Below are positions 33,725 through 43,219 of a DNA stretch of 64,000 nucleotides, in pieces. Within the stretch, counting starts at the first letter, position 1; the number at the start of each line of letters is the position of its first letter. Source of the stretch: Candidatus Altiarchaeota archaeon (lineage in GTDB: Archaea > Altiarchaeota > Altiarchaeia > IMC4 > SCGC-AAA252-I15); contig JAZDMS010000023.1 of assembly GCA_043800705.1 (NCBI GenBank), positions 32,001-96,000 of the forward strand. The letters run 5' to 3'. Made by a program: the position numbers and the translations under genes. The notes below the pieces were generated by a model. That model was not told the DNA's origin and searched no databases. It saw only the letters and a program-made list of their open reading frames with translations.

Positions 33725-34834
33725 ATGAGGCCCAACGCCATATTCTTCCTGTCCACTGCGGCCACCAGCATGAGCGTGCTGTTCATACCCGTCATTGCGC
33801 AGAACATGGGGGCCTCGAACCTCATGATCGGCCTGATAGTCTCCATGTACGGCTTCATGTCCCTCCTGTCCATGTACTTCTTCGGATGGGTCTCGGACGA
33901 GAAGGGCCGCCTGGCGCTGATACGCGCTGGCATGCTGTTCGCGGCTTTCGCATTCCTCATGCAGTCCTTCGCGGACACAGAGGCGAAGCTCCTTGCGGCC
34001 CGCTCCCTTTGCGGCCTGTCTATAGGGGTCTTCTATTCGAGCCTGGTCATGTACGGGGTCGAGGCCGGGAAGAAGCTCGGCAAGTTCACCTCCTATGAGA
34101 GCCTCGGATGGGGCGCAGGCAACCTCGTCGCGGGGCTCATGATCGGCGCATCGCTTTTCGGCCTCGTCGCCGGATACGCGGACATATTCACGGTGTCGGC
34201 CCTCGTATTCTTCGCATGCTTCATCCTGAGCATGCGGCTTCGGGATGTCAAGGCCGCCAGGATCCGTTCGCCGCTTCTGCCAATCGGCTTGATAAGGAAG
34301 AACGCCAACATCTACTTCCCGTTCCTCCTTCGGGACATCGGGGCCTTCTGCGCATGGACTTTCTTCCCCCTTTATCTCATAGACCTCGGAGCGAACGACA
34401 TGTGGATCGGGATCCTCATATTCCTCAACAGCGGCCTCCAGTTCCCAATGAAGCAGATAGTGGACCGCTACGACTTCGAGAAGCTGTTCACCTGGGGCCT
34501 TGCGATATCGGCGGTCGCCCTCTACGCATACGTGCTGCCCCGGAACTACATCGAGGTAATACCCGTCCAACTCCTCATCGCCATCGCCTGGACTACCCTC
34601 AGCGTCGGCGCCATGGGCCTCCTTACGCAGAGGAACCAAGAGAAGGCGACGGTGATAGGCCTCTTCAGCTCGACGAGGGGGGTAGCGCAGATCATCGCCC
34701 CCCTCGTCGGGGGCGTCATAGCCGAGTATTGGGGATACAAGGCCCTGATGTTCTTTTCGGGTTCTATTACGACCCTGGGACTGGCATTCCATCTGAGCCT
34801 CAAGGAAAGGCGGATCAAAAGTCAGAGAGTTTAG
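33725..34834 (+). CDS. MFS transporter
   Basis: About 12 TM; motif A GWVSDEKGR. Confidence 0.9.
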   Translation: MRPNAIFFLSTAATSMSVLFIPVIAQNMGASNLMIGLIVSMYGFMSLLSMYFFGWVSDEKGRLALIRAGMLFAAFAFLMQSFADTEAKLLAARSLCGLSIGVFYSSLVMYGVEAGKKLGKFTSYESLGWGAGNLVAGLMIGASLFGLVAGYADIFTVSALVFFACFILSMRLRDVKAARIRSPLLPIGLIRKNANIYFPFLLRDIGAFCAWTFFPLYLIDLGANDMWIGILIFLNSGLQFPMKQIVDRYDFEKLFTWGLAISAVALYAYVLPRNYIEVIPVQLLIAIAWTTLSVGAMGLLTQRNQEKATVIGLFSSTRGVAQIIAPLVGGVIAEYWGYKALMFFSGSITTLGLAFHLSLKERRIKSQRV

Positions 34835-35360
34835 GTTGTTTTATATCCAGTTTTTCAGTGATCTGAGGCCTTGTAATCCTCCTTAATCTGGGTCTGCCCC
34901 ACCCTGTAATCATTACCACGGCATTGGCGAATACGAATCCCCAAAACAGGGGCTTTAGCGGAAACTCGGGCGCGGGTTCCTGCTTGAATATCATTGCGAC
35001 AGAGAAGCCCAGGACACACCCTGCGGCGGACACCGCGGCAAAGTGGACGGTTTCGAGCACAAACTGGGTGAACCCTGCGAAGACATTGGAGGATATCGAT
35101 CCGTCCGCCGTTTCAACATCAGCCATGTTCTTCTTGCCGGTCGCCGCAGAATAGACCACGAATATCAAAAGATATCCGATGACCAGTCCGAAAAGCCACC
35201 TCAGCTGGGTCGGAAAAAAGTCGAGCGGGCTGCCTGCGATCGCCACGGCTGCCGACCACAGCCAAGGCCCGAACGAGTCGGGGATCGGGCCTCGGGGGAG
35301 AAGGAGCTCCAGAAGGCTCACGGCCGCGACTACGTAAGCCAAGTTTTTGACAACTGCCAC
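34815..35360 (-). CDS. Hypothetical multi-TM membrane protein (start uncertain)
   Basis: About 5 hydrophobic helices; GTG start proposed at 35360. Confidence 0.55.
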   Translation of the reverse strand: MAVVKNLAYVVAAVSLLELLLPRGPIPDSFGPWLWSAAVAIAGSPLDFFPTQLRWLFGLVIGYLLIFVVYSAATGKKNMADVETADGSISSNVFAGFTQFVLETVHFAAVSAAGCVLGFSVAMIFKQEPAPEFPLKPLFWGFVFANAVVMITGWGRPRLRRITRPQITEKLDIKQPKLSDF

Positions 35361-35496
35361 AATACTATGATTCTTGGGCAGAATAAAAATGGCTGCCTCC
35401 CGACGGCATGGGCCGCCGACCCGCCTACATATCATATGTACGCAGGGTTTATGCGCATCGGACCCTGTTTTTATCTGGCGATATGTTATATTTACG

Positions 35497-38400
35497 ATGG
35501 TTCTGGATTTCCGCGCCCTCAAGGCCAGGATGAAGCCGGAATTCCACGCGAATTTCGAGAAATACTACCCTGCCAAGAGCCTGGCATCCGTCGGGTTCAA
35601 GCGGAAGGTCTGCAAAAACTGCGGCAGGGGCTTCTGGAGCGCCGCGGAGCGGGACGTCTGCGACGAGCCGGTATGCTCCGGCGGCTACAGGTTCATCGGC
35701 GAAAAGCTGACGAGGAAGAGGTTCGCATACAAGGAGGCCTGGGACGAGTACGTCAAGGTCTTCGGCAAATGGGGCTACGTCCCCATCGAACGCTACCCCG
35801 TCGTATGCAGGTGGTACGAGGACCTTTACTTCGTCAACGCCGGCGTCAACGACTTCCAGCCGTACGTCATATCCGGCGAGGTCGAGCCGCCGGCTCCGGC
35901 CGTCCTAGAGCCGCAGTTCTGCCTCCGCTTCCAGGACATAGACTCGGTCGGAATCACCGGCCGCCACTATAGCGGATTCATCATGGTCGGCCAGCACACG
36001 TTCAACACAGCCAAGCGGCACGTGTTCTTCAAGGACGAGGGCATACTCCAGATACACGAATTCCTCACGAAAGGCCTCGGCATCAAGGCCGAGGAGGTCG
36101 TCTACCACGAGGACGTCTGGGCCGGAGGCGGCAACTTCGGCCCAAGCATGGAGTTCTTCTGCCGCGGCCTCGAGCTGGGGAACCAGGTCTACATGCAGTA
36201 CAAGGTCCTTCCTGACGGCACGAGCCAGGAGCTGAAGACGCGGGTCATCGACATGGGCGCCGGCCTCGAGCGGTGGAGCTGGTTCAGCCAGGGGAATCCG
36301 ATGAGCTACGACAGCACCTTCCCCCAGGTGATGAAGCACCTGTATAAGGTATCGGGCGTCAAACCCGACGAGAAGCTGATGCTGAAGTTCGGAAACTATG
36401 CGGGGCTCCTGAGCATCGACGACGTCGACGACATCAACTCCGTATGGGGCAGGATATCGAAGGAGCTCGGCATCGACATGGCAAAGCTGAAGGATGAGGT
36501 CTACCGGATGCGCGCCCTCTACGCGATAGCGGACCATACCCGGAGCCTCCTTGTAGCCATACACGACGGCGCATTGCCCTCCAACGTCGGGGGCGGATAC
36601 AACCTCAGGACTCTCCTGAGAAGGTGCTGGAGCCTCAACGACGAATTCGGCCTCGATATCGAGGTGGAGAAGGTCTTCGAGGAGCACATCGGCGAGTTCG
36701 GGAAGTGGTACACGGACCTGAAGGAGACAGGCAGCCTCTTCGACATCGTCGCAGTGGAGCGGGAAAGGTACAAGGAGAACCAGGCCAAGGGCCGCAAGCT
36801 CATCGAGAAGGAGAAGGACATGACGGTGGCGAAGATGGTGGAGCTCTACGACAGTCATGGCATAGCCCCCGACGTCATGCAGAAGATAACAGGCATCCAA
36901 ATCCCGGACGACTTCTACAAGAAAGTGGAGGAACGCCACGAGAAACAAGTAAAAACAGATGAGGTCAAAGAAGAAAAAGATTTAACGGGGATTCCTTTGA
37001 CAAAACTATTATATTATGAAGATTCTGAAAAACTCGATTTTGAGGCGGAATTATTATCTATGTCGGGGGGCTTAGGGGGGGATGAAGGTCATGTAATTCT
37101 GGACAAGACATTATTCTATCCTGGGGGTGGAGGCCAGGAGACAGACAAAGGCCACCTTCAGATTGGATCTAATAGATATGACGTAGTAAGTGTGGAAAAG
37201 AAAAAAGGGGGAATAATAGCGCATAAGATTAATAATTTTTCTCGATTATGGGGAGACGATAGTAGGGTCGATGACAAAGTAAAGGGGTATGTAGATAAGA
37301 GACGTCGCTTACAGCTCGTGCAGCATCATACTGCGACGCACATAGTCAACGCATCAGCGAGGACTGTTCTTGGACCCCACATATGGCAGGCGGGAGCCCA
37401 TAAGAGCGAGAAGTTTTCCCGGCTGGATATCACGCACTATAAGGCGGTGTCGCAGGAGGAGCTTAAAAAGATCGAGGAGAGGGCGAACGAGATTGTCCGG
37501 GAGGCTCACCCTGTCGAAATCAATTGGATGAGGCGCAACGATGCGGAAGGGAAGTATGGGATGCGGCTCTATCAGGGTGGTGCGGTCCCCGGGACGAAGC
37601 TGCGGATCGTGAGCATCCCCGGCATTGACACGGAAGCCTGCGGCGGAACCCACCTGAAAAACACCAAGGAAGCTGGCCGCATAAAGCTCCTGTCCGCGAA
37701 GAGGATACAGGACGGCGTAGTCAGGCTCGAATTCACGGCAGGCGAGGCATCAGAGAGGGAAATACGAGAGGATGCAGAAAAATTTATTCTAGTGAAAATC
37801 CATTTAGATGAGTTTTTGCAACAACAGATAAGAATCCAAAAAAAACTACAGAGAGATTTAGAACCTTTTATGCAAATGCAGAGACGGATGGCAGAAATCA
37901 TGGGCCCAGCCATGCAAATGCAGAAGCGGTTAGCGGAAAGTTTGGAACCCGTGGAAAGGATGCAGGAACAACTTCGCCAGAATCTTGAACCCTTAGAAAC
38001 ATCATTTAAAATAATAGCTGAAAAAGTTGCACCTCAAATGGAAGAGTCTGCAAGAATATTTTCCGTCCCAAAGGAAAAACTCGGAGAAACAATTAATAGA
38101 TTTACAACTGAAATCAATCAGATGGAAGAGAAGATAATGGGGCTGGGCGGAGAACCTCCATCAGATATTGACCTAGATGATACCCCTGCGTTAGGAATTA
38201 GTGGAACATCAAGATACCTCTTTGATAGATGGAAGGAGGATAGAAAGATTTTAGAGAAATTACAAGCCGAAGCATCAGGAGACCTAGTCAGCGACATCGA
38301 AGCCAAGTTCACAGAATCCAACGTCGTAAAGCACGTGACAAGCGGCCTCATGGTGAAGGCTTTGACTGAAGCCGCGAATGCCGCGGTATCGAAGCCCGGC

Positions 38401-38598
38401 CGTCTGTTGATATTGGTCAACATGGCCGGTGACAAGGTCAACGTCGTCGTCGCATCCAGCGGCAAGGCGAACGCCGGAGACGTGTGCAAGAGGCTGTGCG
38501 CCCTCCTTGGCGGCGGAGGCGGTGGGAAGCAGGCGCTGGCGATGGGCGGCGGCAACGCGAAGGACGCTGAACGGATACTGGAAGAATTAAATTATTAA
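35497..38598 (+). CDS. alaS: Alanine--tRNA ligase (archaeal type) with internal repeat insertion
   Basis: CKNC zinc knuckle, RYPVVCRW, GITGRH, DMGAGLER, ADHTR, editing HHTATH and ACGGTH, C-Ala GGGGGG. Confidence 0.95.
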   Translation: MVLDFRALKARMKPEFHANFEKYYPAKSLASVGFKRKVCKNCGRGFWSAAERDVCDEPVCSGGYRFIGEKLTRKRFAYKEAWDEYVKVFGKWGYVPIERYPVVCRWYEDLYFVNAGVNDFQPYVISGEVEPPAPAVLEPQFCLRFQDIDSVGITGRHYSGFIMVGQHTFNTAKRHVFFKDEGILQIHEFLTKGLGIKAEEVVYHEDVWAGGGNFGPSMEFFCRGLELGNQVYMQYKVLPDGTSQELKTRVIDMGAGLERWSWFSQGNPMSYDSTFPQVMKHLYKVSGVKPDEKLMLKFGNYAGLLSIDDVDDINSVWGRISKELGIDMAKLKDEVYRMRALYAIADHTRSLLVAIHDGALPSNVGGGYNLRTLLRRCWSLNDEFGLDIEVEKVFEEHIGEFGKWYTDLKETGSLFDIVAVERERYKENQAKGRKLIEKEKDMTVAKMVELYDSHGIAPDVMQKITGIQIPDDFYKKVEERHEKQVKTDEVKEEKDLTGIPLTKLLYYEDSEKLDFEAELLSMSGGLGGDEGHVILDKTLFYPGGGGQETDKGHLQIGSNRYDVVSVEKKKGGIIAHKINNFSRLWGDDSRVDDKVKGYVDKRRRLQLVQHHTATHIVNASARTVLGPHIWQAGAHKSEKFSRLDITHYKAVSQEELKKIEERANEIVREAHPVEINWMRRNDAEGKYGMRLYQGGAVPGTKLRIVSIPGIDTEACGGTHLKNTKEAGRIKLLSAKRIQDGVVRLEFTAGEASEREIREDAEKFILVKIHLDEFLQQQIRIQKKLQRDLEPFMQMQRRMAEIMGPAMQMQKRLAESLEPVERMQEQLRQNLEPLETSFKIIAEKVAPQMEESARIFSVPKEKLGETINRFTTEINQMEEKIMGLGGEPPSDIDLDDTPALGISGTSRYLFDRWKEDRKILEKLQAEASGDLVSDIEAKFTESNVVKHVTSGLMVKALTEAANAAVSKPGRLLILVNMAGDKVNVVVASSGKANAGDVCKRLCALLGGGGGGKQALAMGGGNAKDAERILEELNY
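37816..38067 (+). repeat. 42-bp (14-aa) degenerate tandem repeat inside alaS
   Basis: Units start at 37858 LEP, 37900 MGP, 37942 LEP, 37984 LEP, 38026 VAP. Confidence 0.8.
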
Positions 38599-38650
38599 TA
38601 CATTGCACTACCCTAATAATTTATATATTAGTACATCGTAATGTACTAAT

Positions 38651-39934
38651 GTGGATATCTCTCGGTTGGAGTTGTTCAACGAATGGTGGACTACGGGATC
38701 GGTGCGTAAGGAGCTCACAAAAGAGTATAGGCGGCCATTATTTGACGAGGTTTTGAAATACCTGAACGACCGGCAGATCATCCTCATATACGGTCTTAGG
38801 AGGGTGGGAAAGTCCACACTCATGTATCAGATAATACAGCATCTCCTAAAGCAGGGAATTGGAGCGGATAGGATATTCCGGTTCTCATTCGACGACACAG
38901 AGGCCCAACTGGATGAGGTCCTGAGGGTTTTTGAGCGGGAGAAGCTAAGGAAGAACTTCGAGCAAGCCGATAGAGTATACGTCTTCTTCGACGAGATCCA
39001 GAAGACCGCGGACTGGCAGAACAAGCTCAAGATATTCTACGACCTCTACCCCAACATAAAATTTTTCATCTGCGGCTCAGCATCCATCAGCATACAGAAG
39101 AAGGCTAAGGAAAGCCTGGCTGGACGGACATACGACTTCCATATGAAGCCGCTCACTTTTGCTGAATTCCTCAAACTCAAAGGCATAGATGCGAAGTTCG
39201 ACCACTGGAAGACCTACAAACGGACTGTAGCCCCATCATTCTACGACCACCTGCGAAAAGGCGGCTTCCCGGAATTGACAGACGAAACAGACGAGGAAAA
39301 GATAAGAAGCTACGTGAAAAACAACGTGATAGACAGGATACTGTACGTTGACCTGCCGGCCGAGTTCGGCCTCAAGGATCCCCAGCTGCTCAAGACCATA
39401 GTCGAGTTGACGGCAGACCATCCGGGCATGATAGTCAACTACGACGCCCTGAAGAACGACCTGAAAAGGAACAAGCAGACCATTATGAGCTACTTCACGT
39501 ACCTGGAGTACGCCCTCATACTCAAGCTTGTGGCCAACATACGGCCCGGCTTCCTGTCGACGTCACGGAAGATGAGGAAGGCGTATCACACCAGCACTGC
39601 GTTCCCGCTCTCTATTGCAAGAAACCCGGACGACACGCTCATGGGCAGAGTCGTGGAAAACCTGATGGTTCAGGAGCTTGATGCGGAATATTACTTCCGC
39701 GACAAAGGCTTTGAAATAGACTTCATAATAAAAAAGGGCGGGAAGACCATCCCCATAGAGATAAAATACGGCAAACCGGACGCCTCAAAGTTTGCCAAAG
39801 CGCTGGCGAGAATTCAACTGGACAATGGGATAATCGTCACAAAAGACCAGGACCAAGAAACGGAAGTAGACGGCAGAAAAATCAAAATGATCCCGGCCTG
39901 GGCGTTCATACTCTTCAAGGAAAAATTCATCTGA
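38651..39934 (+). CDS. AAA_14 + DUF4143-type ATP-binding protein
   Basis: GLRRVGKST, FFDEIQ, CGS, ESLAGR, GGFPE, EIDF..PIEIK nuclease-like C-terminus. Confidence 0.92.
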   Translation: MDISRLELFNEWWTTGSVRKELTKEYRRPLFDEVLKYLNDRQIILIYGLRRVGKSTLMYQIIQHLLKQGIGADRIFRFSFDDTEAQLDEVLRVFEREKLRKNFEQADRVYVFFDEIQKTADWQNKLKIFYDLYPNIKFFICGSASISIQKKAKESLAGRTYDFHMKPLTFAEFLKLKGIDAKFDHWKTYKRTVAPSFYDHLRKGGFPELTDETDEEKIRSYVKNNVIDRILYVDLPAEFGLKDPQLLKTIVELTADHPGMIVNYDALKNDLKRNKQTIMSYFTYLEYALILKLVANIRPGFLSTSRKMRKAYHTSTAFPLSIARNPDDTLMGRVVENLMVQELDAEYYFRDKGFEIDFIIKKGGKTIPIEIKYGKPDASKFAKALARIQLDNGIIVTKDQDQETEVDGRKIKMIPAWAFILFKEKFI

Positions 39935-40003
39935 ACAGGCGATCGGCCCTTTCTTCAGCACACGATGCTCTCCGCAAAATGGATACAGAGCGGCGTCGTT
40001 AGG

Positions 40004-40046
40004 CGCGAAGGACGCTGAAAGGGTTCTGGGCGAGTTCAAGCCTTGA
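40004..40046 (+). pseudogene. Displaced second copy of the alaS 3' end
   Basis: CGCGAAGGACGCTGAA identical to 38556-38571; continues RVLGEFKP* versus RILEELNY* in alaS (same length). Confidence 0.8.
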
Positions 40047-40047
40047 A

Positions 40048-40395
40048 TTATTGCTCCGCCTCATTACCGTCAATCATGTTCATGGCCATGCCGACCCCCA
40101 CATTTCCGGCATCCTGGAAGAGAAAGTTGCCGGCGGTTTTCATAAGATCCATGACTAAACTAATCCCCGTCATTATGGGATTTTTATTAAATTGCGTCAT
40201 CATCTGGTTGGCAAATTCCTCGGCCTGGTGCGTCTGGTCCCCTTCCCCTGGCATAAAGGAAGAGCCGACTATCGGCCCCCTGCCCCTCATGAAGGAATTG
40301 CCCAACAATCCGGTGAGCGTCGCCAACGGCGACTGCTGCTCCATCTGGGGCGACGCAGCTTCCCTGGGTTCAATCATCCTTTGGGCCATTCTCAC
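40048..40395 (-). CDS. Hypothetical Met-rich protein
   Basis: ORF abuts 40396..40704 on the same strand. Confidence 0.5.
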   Translation of the reverse strand: MRMAQRMIEPREAASPQMEQQSPLATLTGLLGNSFMRGRGPIVGSSFMPGEGDQTHQAEEFANQMMTQFNKNPIMTGISLVMDLMKTAGNFLFQDAGNVGVGMAMNMIDGNEAEQ

Positions 40396-40704
40396 CTATC
40401 CGACGCCATCCAGCGTCCTCTCATATATGGTCTTCAGCCTCATCAGGAACTTCAGCTTCTGTTCCTCGTCGATCTTTATTATGCCCGCATCCACTATGCT
40501 GATGTCCTTTCCGTTGGAGAAAACCGCGAGTTTTGAGGACACGGGGCTGCCGAATATTGCGGCCAAATCCTTGTCGGCATTCAACTCGTCGGTCAACCTG
40601 TAAAGGAGGTCGAGGCGCACGCCTATGCCGGCCTCTCCCTCAACCTTCATCCTGCGTTTTGCCTCGAGAGCTTCGGCCTTCTTAGCGAGCGATGTCGCAT
40701 CCAT
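40396..40704 (-). CDS. Hypothetical protein
   Basis: Host-like codon usage; TATAAA on the minus strand ~25 nt upstream. Confidence 0.65.
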   Translation of the reverse strand: MDATSLAKKAEALEAKRRMKVEGEAGIGVRLDLLYRLTDELNADKDLAAIFGSPVSSKLAVFSNGKDISIVDAGIIKIDEEQKLKFLMRLKTIYERTLDGVG

Positions 40705-40767
40705 GGTAAATTACGTGCATTATGAGTTTATATCCGCCTATGTCCCGTGGATGCATTTTTTCGGATA

Positions 40768-40866
40768 TCACGGCAGCTGTATCCTCCCCAGGTAGAGCGT
40801 CAACAGCATGAGCAGAAGGAGGGCGAACAGGAGGCCGCCTATCACCTCGAATATGGGGTTCTTCAC
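40768..40866 (-). CDS. Putative small single-TM peptide
   Basis: VKNPIFEVIGGLLFALLLLMLLTLYLGRIQLP; start uncertain. Confidence 0.35.
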   Translation of the reverse strand: MKNPIFEVIGGLLFALLLLMLLTLYLGRIQLP

Positions 40867-40918
40867 GTTATCAATTCCCCGGACACGTATATATTCCGCT
40901 CTTTCTTGTACTTGGTAC

Positions 40919-41548
40919 ATGTCACCCCAATTGGACGGGCTCATCGGCCTCACCCTCTATATGGTGGCCTTGATAAACCCCATCAGCAAGGTATTCATAC
41001 TCTCCACGATGGCAAAGCGCGGCTGCCTGAGGGAGGTCTTCATGGTCTCCGTCAAGTCGACGCTCGTGGCTTTCGCGATACTCATGGCATCCGCATTAGC
41101 CGGCAACTTCATACTCCACGAGGTATTCCACGTGGAGGTGTATTCCCTGAAGGTGGCGGGCGGAATCGTCATATTCTACATGGGTTTCAGGGCATTGACG
41201 AAGGGGGTCTTCTTCGAGGCGAAGGAGAACGGCTCCATCGCCGACATGTCGATCGTCCCCCTCGCGTCGCCGCTCATCGCGGGGCCTGCGACCATAACGG
41301 CGGCGATTTCGATGCCGGCAGAATACGGCATAGCCGCGACCTCGCTCGCGATAATTCTCGGCCTATCCATCAACCTCGCGATCATGTCCTTTTCGAAGAC
41401 CATCGGCAAATTCCTTAACGTCCACAACTTCATGGGCGCCCTCATCAGGATAACGGGCCTGATTGTCGCGACAATCGCCGTCCAGATGGTTCTCGGCGGG
41501 CTTGAATCCTGGATAAAGCTCATACTACAGGCTATTTTATCCGATTAA
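40919..41548 (+). CDS. MarC family membrane protein
   Basis: INPISK, KVAGGI, VPLASPLIAGPATI, RITGLIVATIAVQM. Confidence 0.92.
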   Translation: MSPQLDGLIGLTLYMVALINPISKVFILSTMAKRGCLREVFMVSVKSTLVAFAILMASALAGNFILHEVFHVEVYSLKVAGGIVIFYMGFRALTKGVFFEAKENGSIADMSIVPLASPLIAGPATITAAISMPAEYGIAATSLAIILGLSINLAIMSFSKTIGKFLNVHNFMGALIRITGLIVATIAVQMVLGGLESWIKLILQAILSD

Positions 41549-41665
41549 GCGCAGAAGACTGCGGCATTGATGGCGCAGATGAATGCGCAGAGGGTGCGCT
41601 TAATGGATAAATACCGCGGCCTTTAGGCCGCAGATATTTATTGTCTGCGTCAGATATCTAATGGG

Positions 41666-43219
41666 ATGTACGAAGAGCCTGACGACGATCCGGGAAGCCT
41701 CATACACGGCAGCAGGGAACTGCAGATACAGATAGTGCTGTCCGGAGTGGTCGTATTGGTCTTTGCACTGGTCGTCGTCATACTCCCCCTGCTTTTCACC
41801 CCGCCTGACCCGATAATCGCACTCATATTCTCGCTCCTTCTTGCAGCGGGCGGTGCGTTCCTCGGAGGCTCCCTCATATTTGGCTACTTCAAGGTGCGGG
41901 TCGGAGCCGAAGCCAGAAGGTACGCGCAGGAGATGTTCGAAAAGGCGTTCGAAGACGGGCATGCGAGGAAGAGCATGGAGGAGTTGTTCCTTGACGAGAA
42001 GGAGCGTCTCGTCGCAGAGCTGGAAGAGCAAAAGCGGCAGTACTTCGACGAATTGCAGGGAGAATTCAATAAACGGCTGGACGAGGAGGAGAACGCCCTG
42101 ATGAACGACGTCCGCAGGGAGTTCGAGAAGCAGATGGAGGCCGAGAAGCAGCTTTACCTCACCAAGGTCGACGAAGACATCCGGGGCCAGGTCACTGAGG
42201 AACATAAGGCATACCAGGACTCCGTCAAGTCGGAATACACAAAAAGGCTCGAAGACGAGAAGAAAGCCTATCAGAAGGCCATCCGGGAGGAGTTCGAAAA
42301 AAGGCTCCAAGAGGAGAAGAAGGCCAATGAGGCCAGGATTGCCGAACACGACGCAGAGCTGCAGGCGCAGAAGAGGAAGTTCTCCGAGCAGGTCGCGGAC
42401 CTGGAGGGCAAAAGAAGGAAAGACGTCGAGGAAAACGAGGCCAAGCAGGCCGTGTTCGACGAGCACATACAGTCCGAGAAGAAGATATTCTCCGACCAGC
42501 TGGCGGAGACGGAGAAACACTACCAGGCGGAGAAGAAGGCCCTCGAGGAGGCTCTCCGCGTCGAATTCGAGCGGAAGGCCGATGTAGAAAAGCAGGCCTA
42601 CACGGACATCATCAGGAAGGATTTCGAGTACTGGAAGAAGGAGTTCACGGACGCGTTTAGAAAGGAGATAATGCGGGACGTGCCGCCCGAGAAGCCGCCG
42701 GAGCCTCCGAAGCCGGAGCCTTCGCCGCCGTGGGTCAAGACGGAGGAGCCCGCTGCCCCCAAGGCGAAGGAGGACCTCAGCGACATATTCCCTAAGGAGA
42801 AGATAGCGGCGGAGCCTGCGTCAGCGGAAGAGGAGGTTCACCGTTCGTTCGATTTCAAGAGCATGGGCCCGCGAGAGCAGGTGGGCTCCGCGGTCGAACT
42901 CCTCCTTAGCGCGGGAGGAAAGGGAGTCAGCCTCACCTTCAGGAACTCTAAGACCCGCAGGCAGGTCGAGCTGAAGGCCAGGGGGAAGGACATCCTGTTC
43001 GAAGCGGCGGTCGACGAGATAAGCATCAAGTCGAGGCTGATGCTGAGGGAGTTCGCGGCACAGAACAAGCTTCCCATGGAAAAGAACGACGATTACATCC
43101 GCATCTCATTCGGCTCCGACGAAAGAGCAGTCAAGGACCGGCTGAAGGAGGCCCTGGAGACGGCATTCGCCACCCCGATAGAGAACCTGGCGTTCGACGT
43201 GAAAACGGCAGAGAACTGA
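41666..43219 (+). CDS. Membrane-anchored long coiled-coil protein with 19-aa repeats
   Basis: Two N-terminal TM; repeats EFNKRLDEEEN.. / EFEKQMEAEKQ.. / EYTKRLEDEKK.. / EFEKRLQEEKK..; Pro-rich linker; globular C-terminus. Confidence 0.75.
   Translation: MYEEPDDDPGSLIHGSRELQIQIVLSGVVVLVFALVVVILPLLFTPPDPIIALIFSLLLAAGGAFLGGSLIFGYFKVRVGAEARRYAQEMFEKAFEDGHARKSMEELFLDEKERLVAELEEQKRQYFDELQGEFNKRLDEEENALMNDVRREFEKQMEAEKQLYLTKVDEDIRGQVTEEHKAYQDSVKSEYTKRLEDEKKAYQKAIREEFEKRLQEEKKANEARIAEHDAELQAQKRKFSEQVADLEGKRRKDVEENEAKQAVFDEHIQSEKKIFSDQLAETEKHYQAEKKALEEALRVEFERKADVEKQAYTDIIRKDFEYWKKEFTDAFRKEIMRDVPPEKPPEPPKPEPSPPWVKTEEPAAPKAKEDLSDIFPKEKIAAEPASAEEEVHRSFDFKSMGPREQVGSAVELLLSAGGKGVSLTFRNSKTRRQVELKARGKDILFEAAVDEISIKSRLMLREFAAQNKLPMEKNDDYIRISFGSDERAVKDRLKEALETAFATPIENLAFDVKTAEN

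Follow-up and report, generated by a model that had tools for sequence, protein, structure and literature searches.

A one-gene PDC-S01 cassette with an apparently imported alaS end in an archaeal genome

Some integrative elements supply a substitute end to the gene that they enter, as do e14 and phage 21 at the icd gene of E. coli and elements that target tRNA genes. Those of the e14 type are many kilobases long and encode a site-specific recombinase, and CIMEs (cis-mobilizable elements) are integrase-less, att-flanked decay products of large conjugative elements that have their integrase supplied in trans. In this study we analyze a 64,000-nt stretch of DNA from an archaeon of the Altiarchaeota (hereafter the window, whose positions serve as coordinates) in which the 3' end of alaS, the gene for archaeal alanyl-tRNA synthetase, is present in two non-identical copies on either side of a single ATPase-nuclease gene of the PDC-S01 type. 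The source genome, G000, is a 2.0-Mb, 43-contig metagenome bin that is 87.55% complete. Comparison with relatives supports the view that the working end of this alaS looks imported and that the end displaced beyond the ATPase gene looks native. As a whole, the locus is best explained by homology-anchored insertion of a self-contained cassette at the alaS 3' end, to which we assign a probability of roughly 0.6.

Insertion with long target duplication has been described for restriction-modification units, which are bounded by long direct repeats of variable length and carry no mobility gene; in the available part of that report, no archaeal restriction-modification case survived selection (Furuta, Abe and Kobayashi, NAR 2010, PMC2853133). 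PDC-S01 is presented, in the available part of its description, as an ATPase fused to a PD-(D/E)xK domain that is the fourth most common defence across prokaryotes, is enriched in Archaea and is not yet validated as defence (PMC12988326). In the accessible portions of two further sources, DUF4143 (COG1373) is listed in the PD-(D/E)XK superfamily with function unknown (PMC3424549), and COG1373 is among the tabulated genes that gut genera co-share (PMC10782964). Embedding between unrelated genes is what led to the recognition of hundreds of candidate defence genes. The alaS locus is informative in this respect because its repeat copies are non-identical, which allows an imported gene end to be distinguished from a native one.

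The alaS locus and its two gene ends

The working alaS gene (35497-38598, plus strand, as are the features below unless stated otherwise) encodes a protein of 1033 aa with Pfam tRNA-synt_2c, tRNA_SAD and DHHA1 domains, its start at ATG 35497 (MVLDFRALK..) having been chosen by alignment to relatives. Near its end, within the codons for ..AKDAE, lies the 16-mer CGCGAAGGACGCTGAA (38556-38571), which is present a second time at 40004-40019. The first copy runs into CGG ATA CTG GAA GAA TTA AAT TAT TAA, encoding RILEELNY and a stop at 26% GC, and the second into AGG GTT CTG GGC GAG TTC AAG CCT TGA, encoding RVLGEFKP and a stop (40044-40046) at 56% GC. Similarity between the copies extends 8 nt past both stop codons, and with these nucleotides the working, putatively cassette-borne end occupies 38572-38606 and the displaced, native-looking end 40020-40054. 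An earlier note, made from the letters alone, had drawn attention to the 16-bp identity with eight codons and a stop behind each copy, and to the difference between an AT-rich and a host-like tail; direct reading of both copies confirms the former, and the GC values, set against 59.5% for the alaS backbone, confirm the latter.

Overall, the repeat pair measures 51 nt at 73% identity (37/51) with a spacing of 1448 nt and is the largest direct-repeat family that a repeat search returned within 34000-42000. The 35 positions that follow the 16 identical bases include 21 matches (binomial P about 1e-5 to 2e-4). Because the match continues in this manner past the 16-mer and also 8 nt past the stops, we conclude that the two copies are homologous alaS ends and not a chance word. 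When 730 nt of upstream flank were compared with 760 nt of downstream flank by blastn-short, the 16-mer was recovered at E = 1.1e-4, a value reached by just 2 of 292 control open reading frames (ORFs) from the same genome.

Between the two copies lies an intact gene (38651-39934, GTG start) for a 427-aa protein that matches Pfam AAA_14 (2.8e-34) and DUF4143 (3.4e-19), both above cut-offs, and that PADLOC assigns to PDC-S01. It is the sole match between the repeat copies among Pfam and the families tested, the same searches found no mobility gene inside the cassette, and the cassette's GC content is 48.4% versus 59.5% for the alaS backbone. A Pfam search of the locus found no transposase domain, and among the 25 longest inverted repeats listed there is no pair that joins the two ends of the cassette. 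The tyrosine-recombinase family PF00589 has one match in the 2.0-Mb assembly, located on contig C17 and not on the contig of the window, serine recombinases and divergent archaeal integrases not having been searched for. The description in the earlier note of an AAA_14/DUF4143 cassette that carries no recombinase therefore stands, as far as tested.

Just ahead of the ATPase start is a promoter-like TTTATATA (38620-38627), read by eye, and between this TATA-like box and the start lies the operator-like palindrome TAGTACATCGTAATGTACTA (38629-38648), which is probably the self-operator of the ATPase gene. In 18 of 161 homologous loci, among them L061, L060, L141 and L079, the motif ACAT-N1-8-ATGT is present at most 125 nt ahead of the start, versus a background of 0.011 per 125 nt, and it is often found twice around the TATA box. 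The ATPase stop is followed by a 30-nt spacer (39935-39964) with similarity to nothing found, by a fragment of alaS that is treated below, and by the right copy of the 16-mer with the displaced alaS end. The latter abuts a convergent ORF (40048-40395, minus strand). This ORF is one of two small convergent ORFs behind the displaced end (115 and 102 aa; 40048-40704, minus strand), which have no Pfam match.

Origin of the two gene ends

The earlier note had proposed that the cassette arrived with its own alaS end and displaced the native one, and had suggested that the endings of relatives that lack the ATPase be checked. The genomes G001, G002, G003 and G004 (completeness 70-92%) served as the same-genus comparison set; none of the four carries the ATPase behind alaS, and none has a homologue of it at E<=1e-30. 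Their alaS genes end in ..RILQEFQP (G001), ..KILKNFKP (G002), ..GILERFNP (G003) and ..KLAKFKID (G004), each followed by a stop. Thus the F-x-P-stop signature of the displaced end (EFKP and a stop) is common to three of the four, and an ..ELNY ending is present in none. The pattern that the note had named as refuting its proposal, relatives ending in RILEELNY with nothing that resembles RVLGEFKP, is therefore not what these genomes show. Endings of the EEL type, as in the active tail, are limited to more distant relatives (EELEI in G020, EELKV in G023 and EELGL in G017). The body of alaS is 81% identical to that of G001 in its 5' part, 80% in its middle and 79% in the C-Ala domain, up to the 16-mer. 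Since alaS remains G001-like up to this point, foreign DNA appears to begin at the 16-mer.

A breakpoint at the same position is also seen at the strain level. The only public run that holds part of the stretch (about 0.07 of sampled words) is X1, a groundwater metagenome, among whose Logan contigs is one of 318 nt (depth 2.8) that covers 38408-38725 and hence the left alaS-ATPase junction. Differences from the window number 13 in 38439-38571, all within 38439-38565, versus 1 in 38572-38694, at 38659 (Fisher P = 0.0015), and 11 of the 13 upstream of the breakpoint fall at third codon positions of alaS. The alaS of the X1 strain is thus about 10% diverged up to 38565, and the start of the cassette is near identical. 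From this shift in divergence it follows that the cassette has a history different from that of the alaS body, with a breakpoint at the 16-mer. Together with the genus signature, the GC contents and the layout of a second alaS locus described below, this breakpoint supports the earlier proposal that the cassette brought an alaS end of its own.

The sequence behind the ATPase gene would be a composite relic. Its first part, hereafter piece A (MLSAKWIQSGVVR, 39965-40003), was recognized by tblastn and blastn as a fragment of the end of the alaS editing domain. Read across its border, 39965-40009 translate into MLSAKWIQSGVVRRE, which copies the conserved end of the editing domain, MLSAKRIQDGVVRLE; the active counterpart in alaS lies at 37687-37731. 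Piece A is in a frame different from that of the tail, is fused directly to core and tail, and has conserved residues altered from R to W and from D to S. When the 126-nt stretch was searched by tblastn with alanyl-tRNA synthetase (AlaRS) sequences, this motif was the top match for 8 of 11 queries and the second best for the window's own AlaRS and that of G020 (E 2e-4 to 0.07); by blastn, the region is 80% identical to G001 over 45 nt. We favor, without regarding the matter as settled, a reading in which the attachment segment of the cassette was once a longer alaS 3' fragment whose middle was lost later, because the C-Ala domain is native-like and because the X1 breakpoint lies at the 16-mer. 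Piece A also prompted us to consider a larger incoming segment, from about 37730 to 39964 (2.24 kb; AT-rich linker, C-Ala, tail and ATPase), which was dropped for the same two reasons.

Apart from its 3' end, alaS contains two AT-rich patches, at 36945-37308 and 37765-38325, with a GC content of about 38-45% in a gene of 59% GC and no DNA match to G001. The first patch is closest to G006 (50% aa identity versus 36% to G001, with shared indels). The second is a linker with MQMQ-type repeats that is closest to G020 (30% versus 20%), and an AT-rich alaS linker is present in other relatives too. These could be recombination patches or fast-evolving insertions. Additionally, the alaS match in the relative G030 (G030:C19:42568-44811) holds two in-frame TAA codons, which could reflect a pseudogene, a sequencing error or recoding.

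The ATPase-nuclease and its repeat-flanked relatives

The protein encoded by the cassette matches the PADLOC PDC-S01 model PDLC04787 over residues 25-421 (E = 2.4e-67). Among 40 aligned homologues, G48..K54 (Walker A), D114 and E115 (Walker B), R159, E355 and D357 (window numbering) are invariant, and E336, E370 and K372, which together with D357 make up the PD-(D/E)xK residues, are at least 90% conserved. An AlphaFold2 model (pLDDT 92), compared as a whole by Foldseek, resembles the archaeal AAA+ ATPases SSO1545 and PAB2304, Orc1/Cdc6, STAND ATPases and RuvB, so that the predicted fold is of the AAA+/STAND/Orc1-like type; a sequence search of solved structures gave no informative relative. 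Single-protein scans of genome contigs and metagenome contigs found no close relatives, and scans with a three-sequence alignment reached at best 47% identity in genome contigs and 51% in metagenome contigs. A second copy of the exact alaS cassette was not found in these contig scans. Only two plasmid homologues were seen at E<=1e-30, and the context of the one on an Acinetobacter plasmid was uninformative. A second paralogue of the ATPase in G000 itself (contig C42) has no flanking repeat.

The layout seen in the window recurs in G026, a one-contig genome from another family of the same order. Here, too, an ATPase (35% identical to that of the window) is encoded directly behind alaS, and next comes a second copy, 112 nt long and 95.5% identical, of the end of alaS and its 3' flank. 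All five mismatches lie within the first 20 nt of this copy, and weaker alaS-like sequence is present upstream of it. Moreover, 26 nt of the ATPase 3' end (..WLFLLCVE and a stop) recur right after the second alaS-end copy (L058, G026:C1:632500-638500, 2786-2985), resembling a scar left by a further cassette copy that has been deleted. No ATPase was present in the 3' flank of alaS at the other alaS loci fetched from relatives, and the 179 other ATPase loci included none adjacent to alaS.

Direct repeats around the ATPase gene are not restricted to alaS. Scoring flanking direct repeats at E<=1.1e-4, we found them at 9 of 21 ATPase loci of the order (a count that includes the window locus and two loci with short flanks), at 11 of 73 loci from reference genomes (7 further loci had flanks that were too short) and at 13 of 63 loci from metagenomes (17 further loci were too short). 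In total, 33 of 157 ATPase loci have such repeats versus 2 of 292 control ORFs (Fisher P = 2e-14), the control being drawn from one genome and possibly including ORFs that are no genes. The spacing of the repeats is 1.41-2.08 kb at every repeat-flanked locus, which corresponds to one gene, and their length ranges from 16 to 480 nt. Among the controls, a hairpin repeat of 64-102 nt (CTGGCGG..CCGCCAG) at G000:C30:2164-4082 is the only strong match; it flanks an ORF for a membrane protein on either side and is found twice on the downstream one.

The sequences that are repeated are diverse. At L086 the repeat comprises the final 24 nt of a gene for tRNA-Val together with the terminator of that gene. 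At L203 (2384-4940) the ATPase gene lies between two 94%-identical copies of 480 nt that, translated by eye, read as the 5' end of hsdM; this cassette would be embedded in a type I restriction system with the start of its downstream gene duplicated. Other repeats are 3' ends of upstream or convergent genes. In G006 (L046, G006:C11, 156-2318) the last 79 nt of one gene are present in three copies (96% and 86-87% identical) that form the array T1-ATPase-T2-hicB-like/hicA-T3, in which HicA has E = 2.5e-14 and the HicB-like match is below cut-off. As one gene end here bounds two different cargos, the mechanism appears to be general and not tied to the ATPase.

Alleles of a single intergenic site can be compared in Phascolarctobacterium, where 12 genomes (L078, L227-L237; G049, G054-G092) have flanks that are 92-100% identical. 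Three of them carry repeat-ATPase-repeat, four a solo repeat of 104 nt, and in five the site is empty apart from a 30-nt filler. The repeat is made up of three palindromes of the AAAGTATACTT type and begins at the stop codon, and for these reasons we read it as the cassette's own operator block and not as host DNA. The search for a native copy of repeat targets at other archaeal loci was uninformative: the G006 target has no orthologue in G016, the G044 flank has no match within its genus, and the G019 target is intergenic and too diverged.

Insertion mechanism and known systems

The anatomy of the alaS locus, the native look of the displaced end, the breakpoint at the 16-mer between strains and the recurrence of the layout can be brought together by the following scheme, for which we infer a circular intermediate, a crossover point, an enzyme and an origin of piece A. 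A cassette of about 1.45 kb would comprise a single PDC-S01 ATPase-nuclease gene, a promoter and operator of its own, and a short attachment segment derived from alaS. It would enter the alaS 3' end by a Campbell-type single crossover inside the shared 16-bp stretch, such that alaS upstream of the crossover stays native while the downstream part reads the eight codons and stop of the cassette. The native eight codons and stop would thereby be pushed 1448 bp downstream, behind the ATPase gene, where they would follow the non-functional 5' part of the attachment segment, the decayed editing-domain fragment. The agent would most likely be the general recombination machinery of the host, working on incoming DNA that is circular or anchored, rather than a dedicated integrase. 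A crossover of this kind explains why the working tail is foreign and the native one stranded, why a piece of alaS lies behind the ATPase gene, and how tandem scars, arrays and solo-repeat alleles arise. More generally, an imported working end together with a stranded native end points to recombination via a gene end that the cassette carries and not to a cut-and-fill duplication.

Several observations weigh against this scheme. The identical core is just 16 bp, which is short for homologous recombination. The raw identity of the two tails to the genus is near equal (12/24 versus 10/24 by manual count), and consequently the nativeness of the displaced tail rests on the F-x-P-stop signature and on GC. 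Within the genus, the genes 3' of alaS differ in their order, which prevents reconstruction of the ancestral site. The X1 contig is short and of low depth, and it has 20 differences in all, of which 14 are located and the other 6 lie within 31 nt of the contig ends. The X1 contigs show no empty-site allele, no circle junction and no right-junction read, although their cover ends at 39151 and absence does not follow from this. Piece A, moreover, may have another source: a larger native 3' part could instead have been displaced and then have lost about 200-270 codons by deletion. Finally, most repeats elsewhere have sharp ends and 85-100% identity, which true target duplication explains equally well, and the bacterial repeats resemble the operator region of the cassette rather than host DNA.

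An alternative is that the ATPase-nuclease recognizes DNA, cuts the target with its PD-(D/E)xK domain in a staggered fashion or at paired sites, and so promotes its own insertion and excision, the repeats being the footprint of this activity. Walker A and B and the residues E336, D357, E370 and K372 are kept in the protein, the enrichment of flanking repeats was measured around this very gene family, and nuclease-encoding restriction-modification units insert in a like manner in the available part of the published account (PMC2853133). Additionally, operator-like palindromes travel with the gene, and the bacterial repeats are made of such motifs and begin at a stop codon. This explanation is weakened by the variable length of the repeats, with no common motif seen by eye in those derived from host DNA, by the HicAB cassette of G006 that shares its gene-end repeat with an ATPase cassette, and by two of seven aligned repeat-flanked homologues in which the ExK residues are missing (VVVK in L047 and VNVS in L057). 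Furthermore, the two tails of the window differ, so that no simple fill-in duplication is involved, and we regard self-insertion as unlikely. A broader version of the idea, which we put forward as a speculation with a small chance of being correct, is that PDC-S01 genes form an undescribed class of recombinase-less mobile cassettes that carry a host gene end or their own operator block as an attachment segment and insert and excise next to gene ends via their own AAA+ and restriction-endonuclease-like domains. If true, it would explain both the embedding of defence genes in operons and the rewriting of the termini of essential genes such as alaS.

A true long target duplication would imply that the cassette brought no alaS sequence, that about 50 nt of the host alaS end were duplicated upon its entry, and that the upstream copy diverged later. 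Such events have been reported, in the part of the study that is available, for restriction-modification units without a mobility gene, with repeats of 30 to >400 bp that often lie over gene 3' ends (PMC2853133), and the sharp-ended, mostly 85-100% identical repeats at other ATPase loci fit this description. At alaS, on the other hand, 14 of 35 positions differ after a perfect 16-mer, and it is the functional upstream copy that is AT-rich and lacks the genus signature while the unselected downstream copy looks native. Tail and cassette are also near unchanged between the window and X1, strains whose alaS differs by about 10%, and a duplication followed by divergence is accordingly improbable here.

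Less probable again is a larger, integrase-bearing element at the alaS 3' end that later lost all but the ATPase gene. As in that class, the junctions have an identical core in common and the element supplies a new end to the gene, and at least one internal deletion must have occurred, since piece A is fused to the tail. Against this, what lies between the repeats at 33 of 33 loci is a single ATPase gene (1.4-2.1 kb), and perfect repeats (L060, L077 and L176), which must be recent because they are perfect, also bound one-gene units; independent decay to the same minimal unit is unlikely, and the lone PF00589 match of the assembly is on another contig. A metagenome contig that misjoins two strains or species at short shared words, for which the 43-contig bin and the compositional mosaic of alaS might speak, is very improbable, given that 16 bp is below the usual assembly word length, that the X1 contig from a separate public run, although one that may be related to the source sample, spans the left junction and argues against its misassembly, and that the same layout is present in the one-contig genome G026 along with repeat-flanked loci in many other assemblies.

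If homology-anchored insertion is correct, the second alaS, the tRNA gene, the hsdM-like 5' end, the mixed arrays and the three-allele locus together suggest a simple route by which single defence genes spread in archaea and bacteria. The same route would remodel the ends of host genes without any recombinase of the cassette's own.

How the alaS cassette relates to described systems can now be stated. With insertion by long target duplication, as covered in the available part of its description (PMC2853133), it shares a nuclease-bearing defence unit without a mobility gene, a deviating GC content of the insert, and repeats that are longer than the target duplications of transposons, that often overlap the 3' end of a neighbor and that are commoner than for average genes. 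Repeats of more than 30 bp are clear in G026 (112 nt, 95.5%) and at other loci, and the window has 16 identical bp within 51 nt at 73%. The cargo here differs, however, in being one PDC-S01 gene instead of a restriction-modification unit, the host is an archaeon, and the copies are identical over 16 bp and then differ at 14 of 35 positions with the functional copy being the foreign one. Nor do both copies equal the target, as the genus signature is present in the downstream copy and missing from the upstream one, in a comparison that included no near-identical insert-free strain.

Unlike DNA transposons, the cassette has no transposase domain that was found and no inverted repeats pairing its ends (among the 25 longest listed), and repeat lengths vary from 16 to 480 nt. 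With e14-type elements it has in common an identical core at both junctions, an element copy that becomes the working gene end and a native end that is stranded, and with tRNA-targeting elements the position of the related cassette L086 at the 3' end of tRNA-Val; it is unlike e14-type elements in that the unit is 1.45 kb with no recombinase gene found inside among the families tested. Repeat-bounded units without a recombinase and arrays on one gene end, as in G006, are shared with CIMEs and with tandem accretion at gene 3' ends, but no integrase partner is evident for the cassette of the window.

With PDC-S01 of PADLOC, going by the available parts of the two sources, the cassette gene shares the model match and the ATPase/PD-(D/E)xK architecture (PMC12988326; Payne et al., 10.1101/2024.01.29.577857). 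In these parts, the published accounts of PDC-S01 deal with how abundant the family is and with how it was discovered, through its embedding within other systems. The words 'direct repeat' and 'recombin' are absent from the main text of the Payne et al. preprint (10.1101/2024.01.29.577857), supplements aside, and in the accessible texts, again supplements aside, we came across no publication connecting DUF4143 or PDC-S01 with flanking repeats. What the alaS locus adds to these systems is a non-identical repeat pair that reveals the imported end, the involvement of an essential archaeal gene, and a strain-level breakpoint at the junction.

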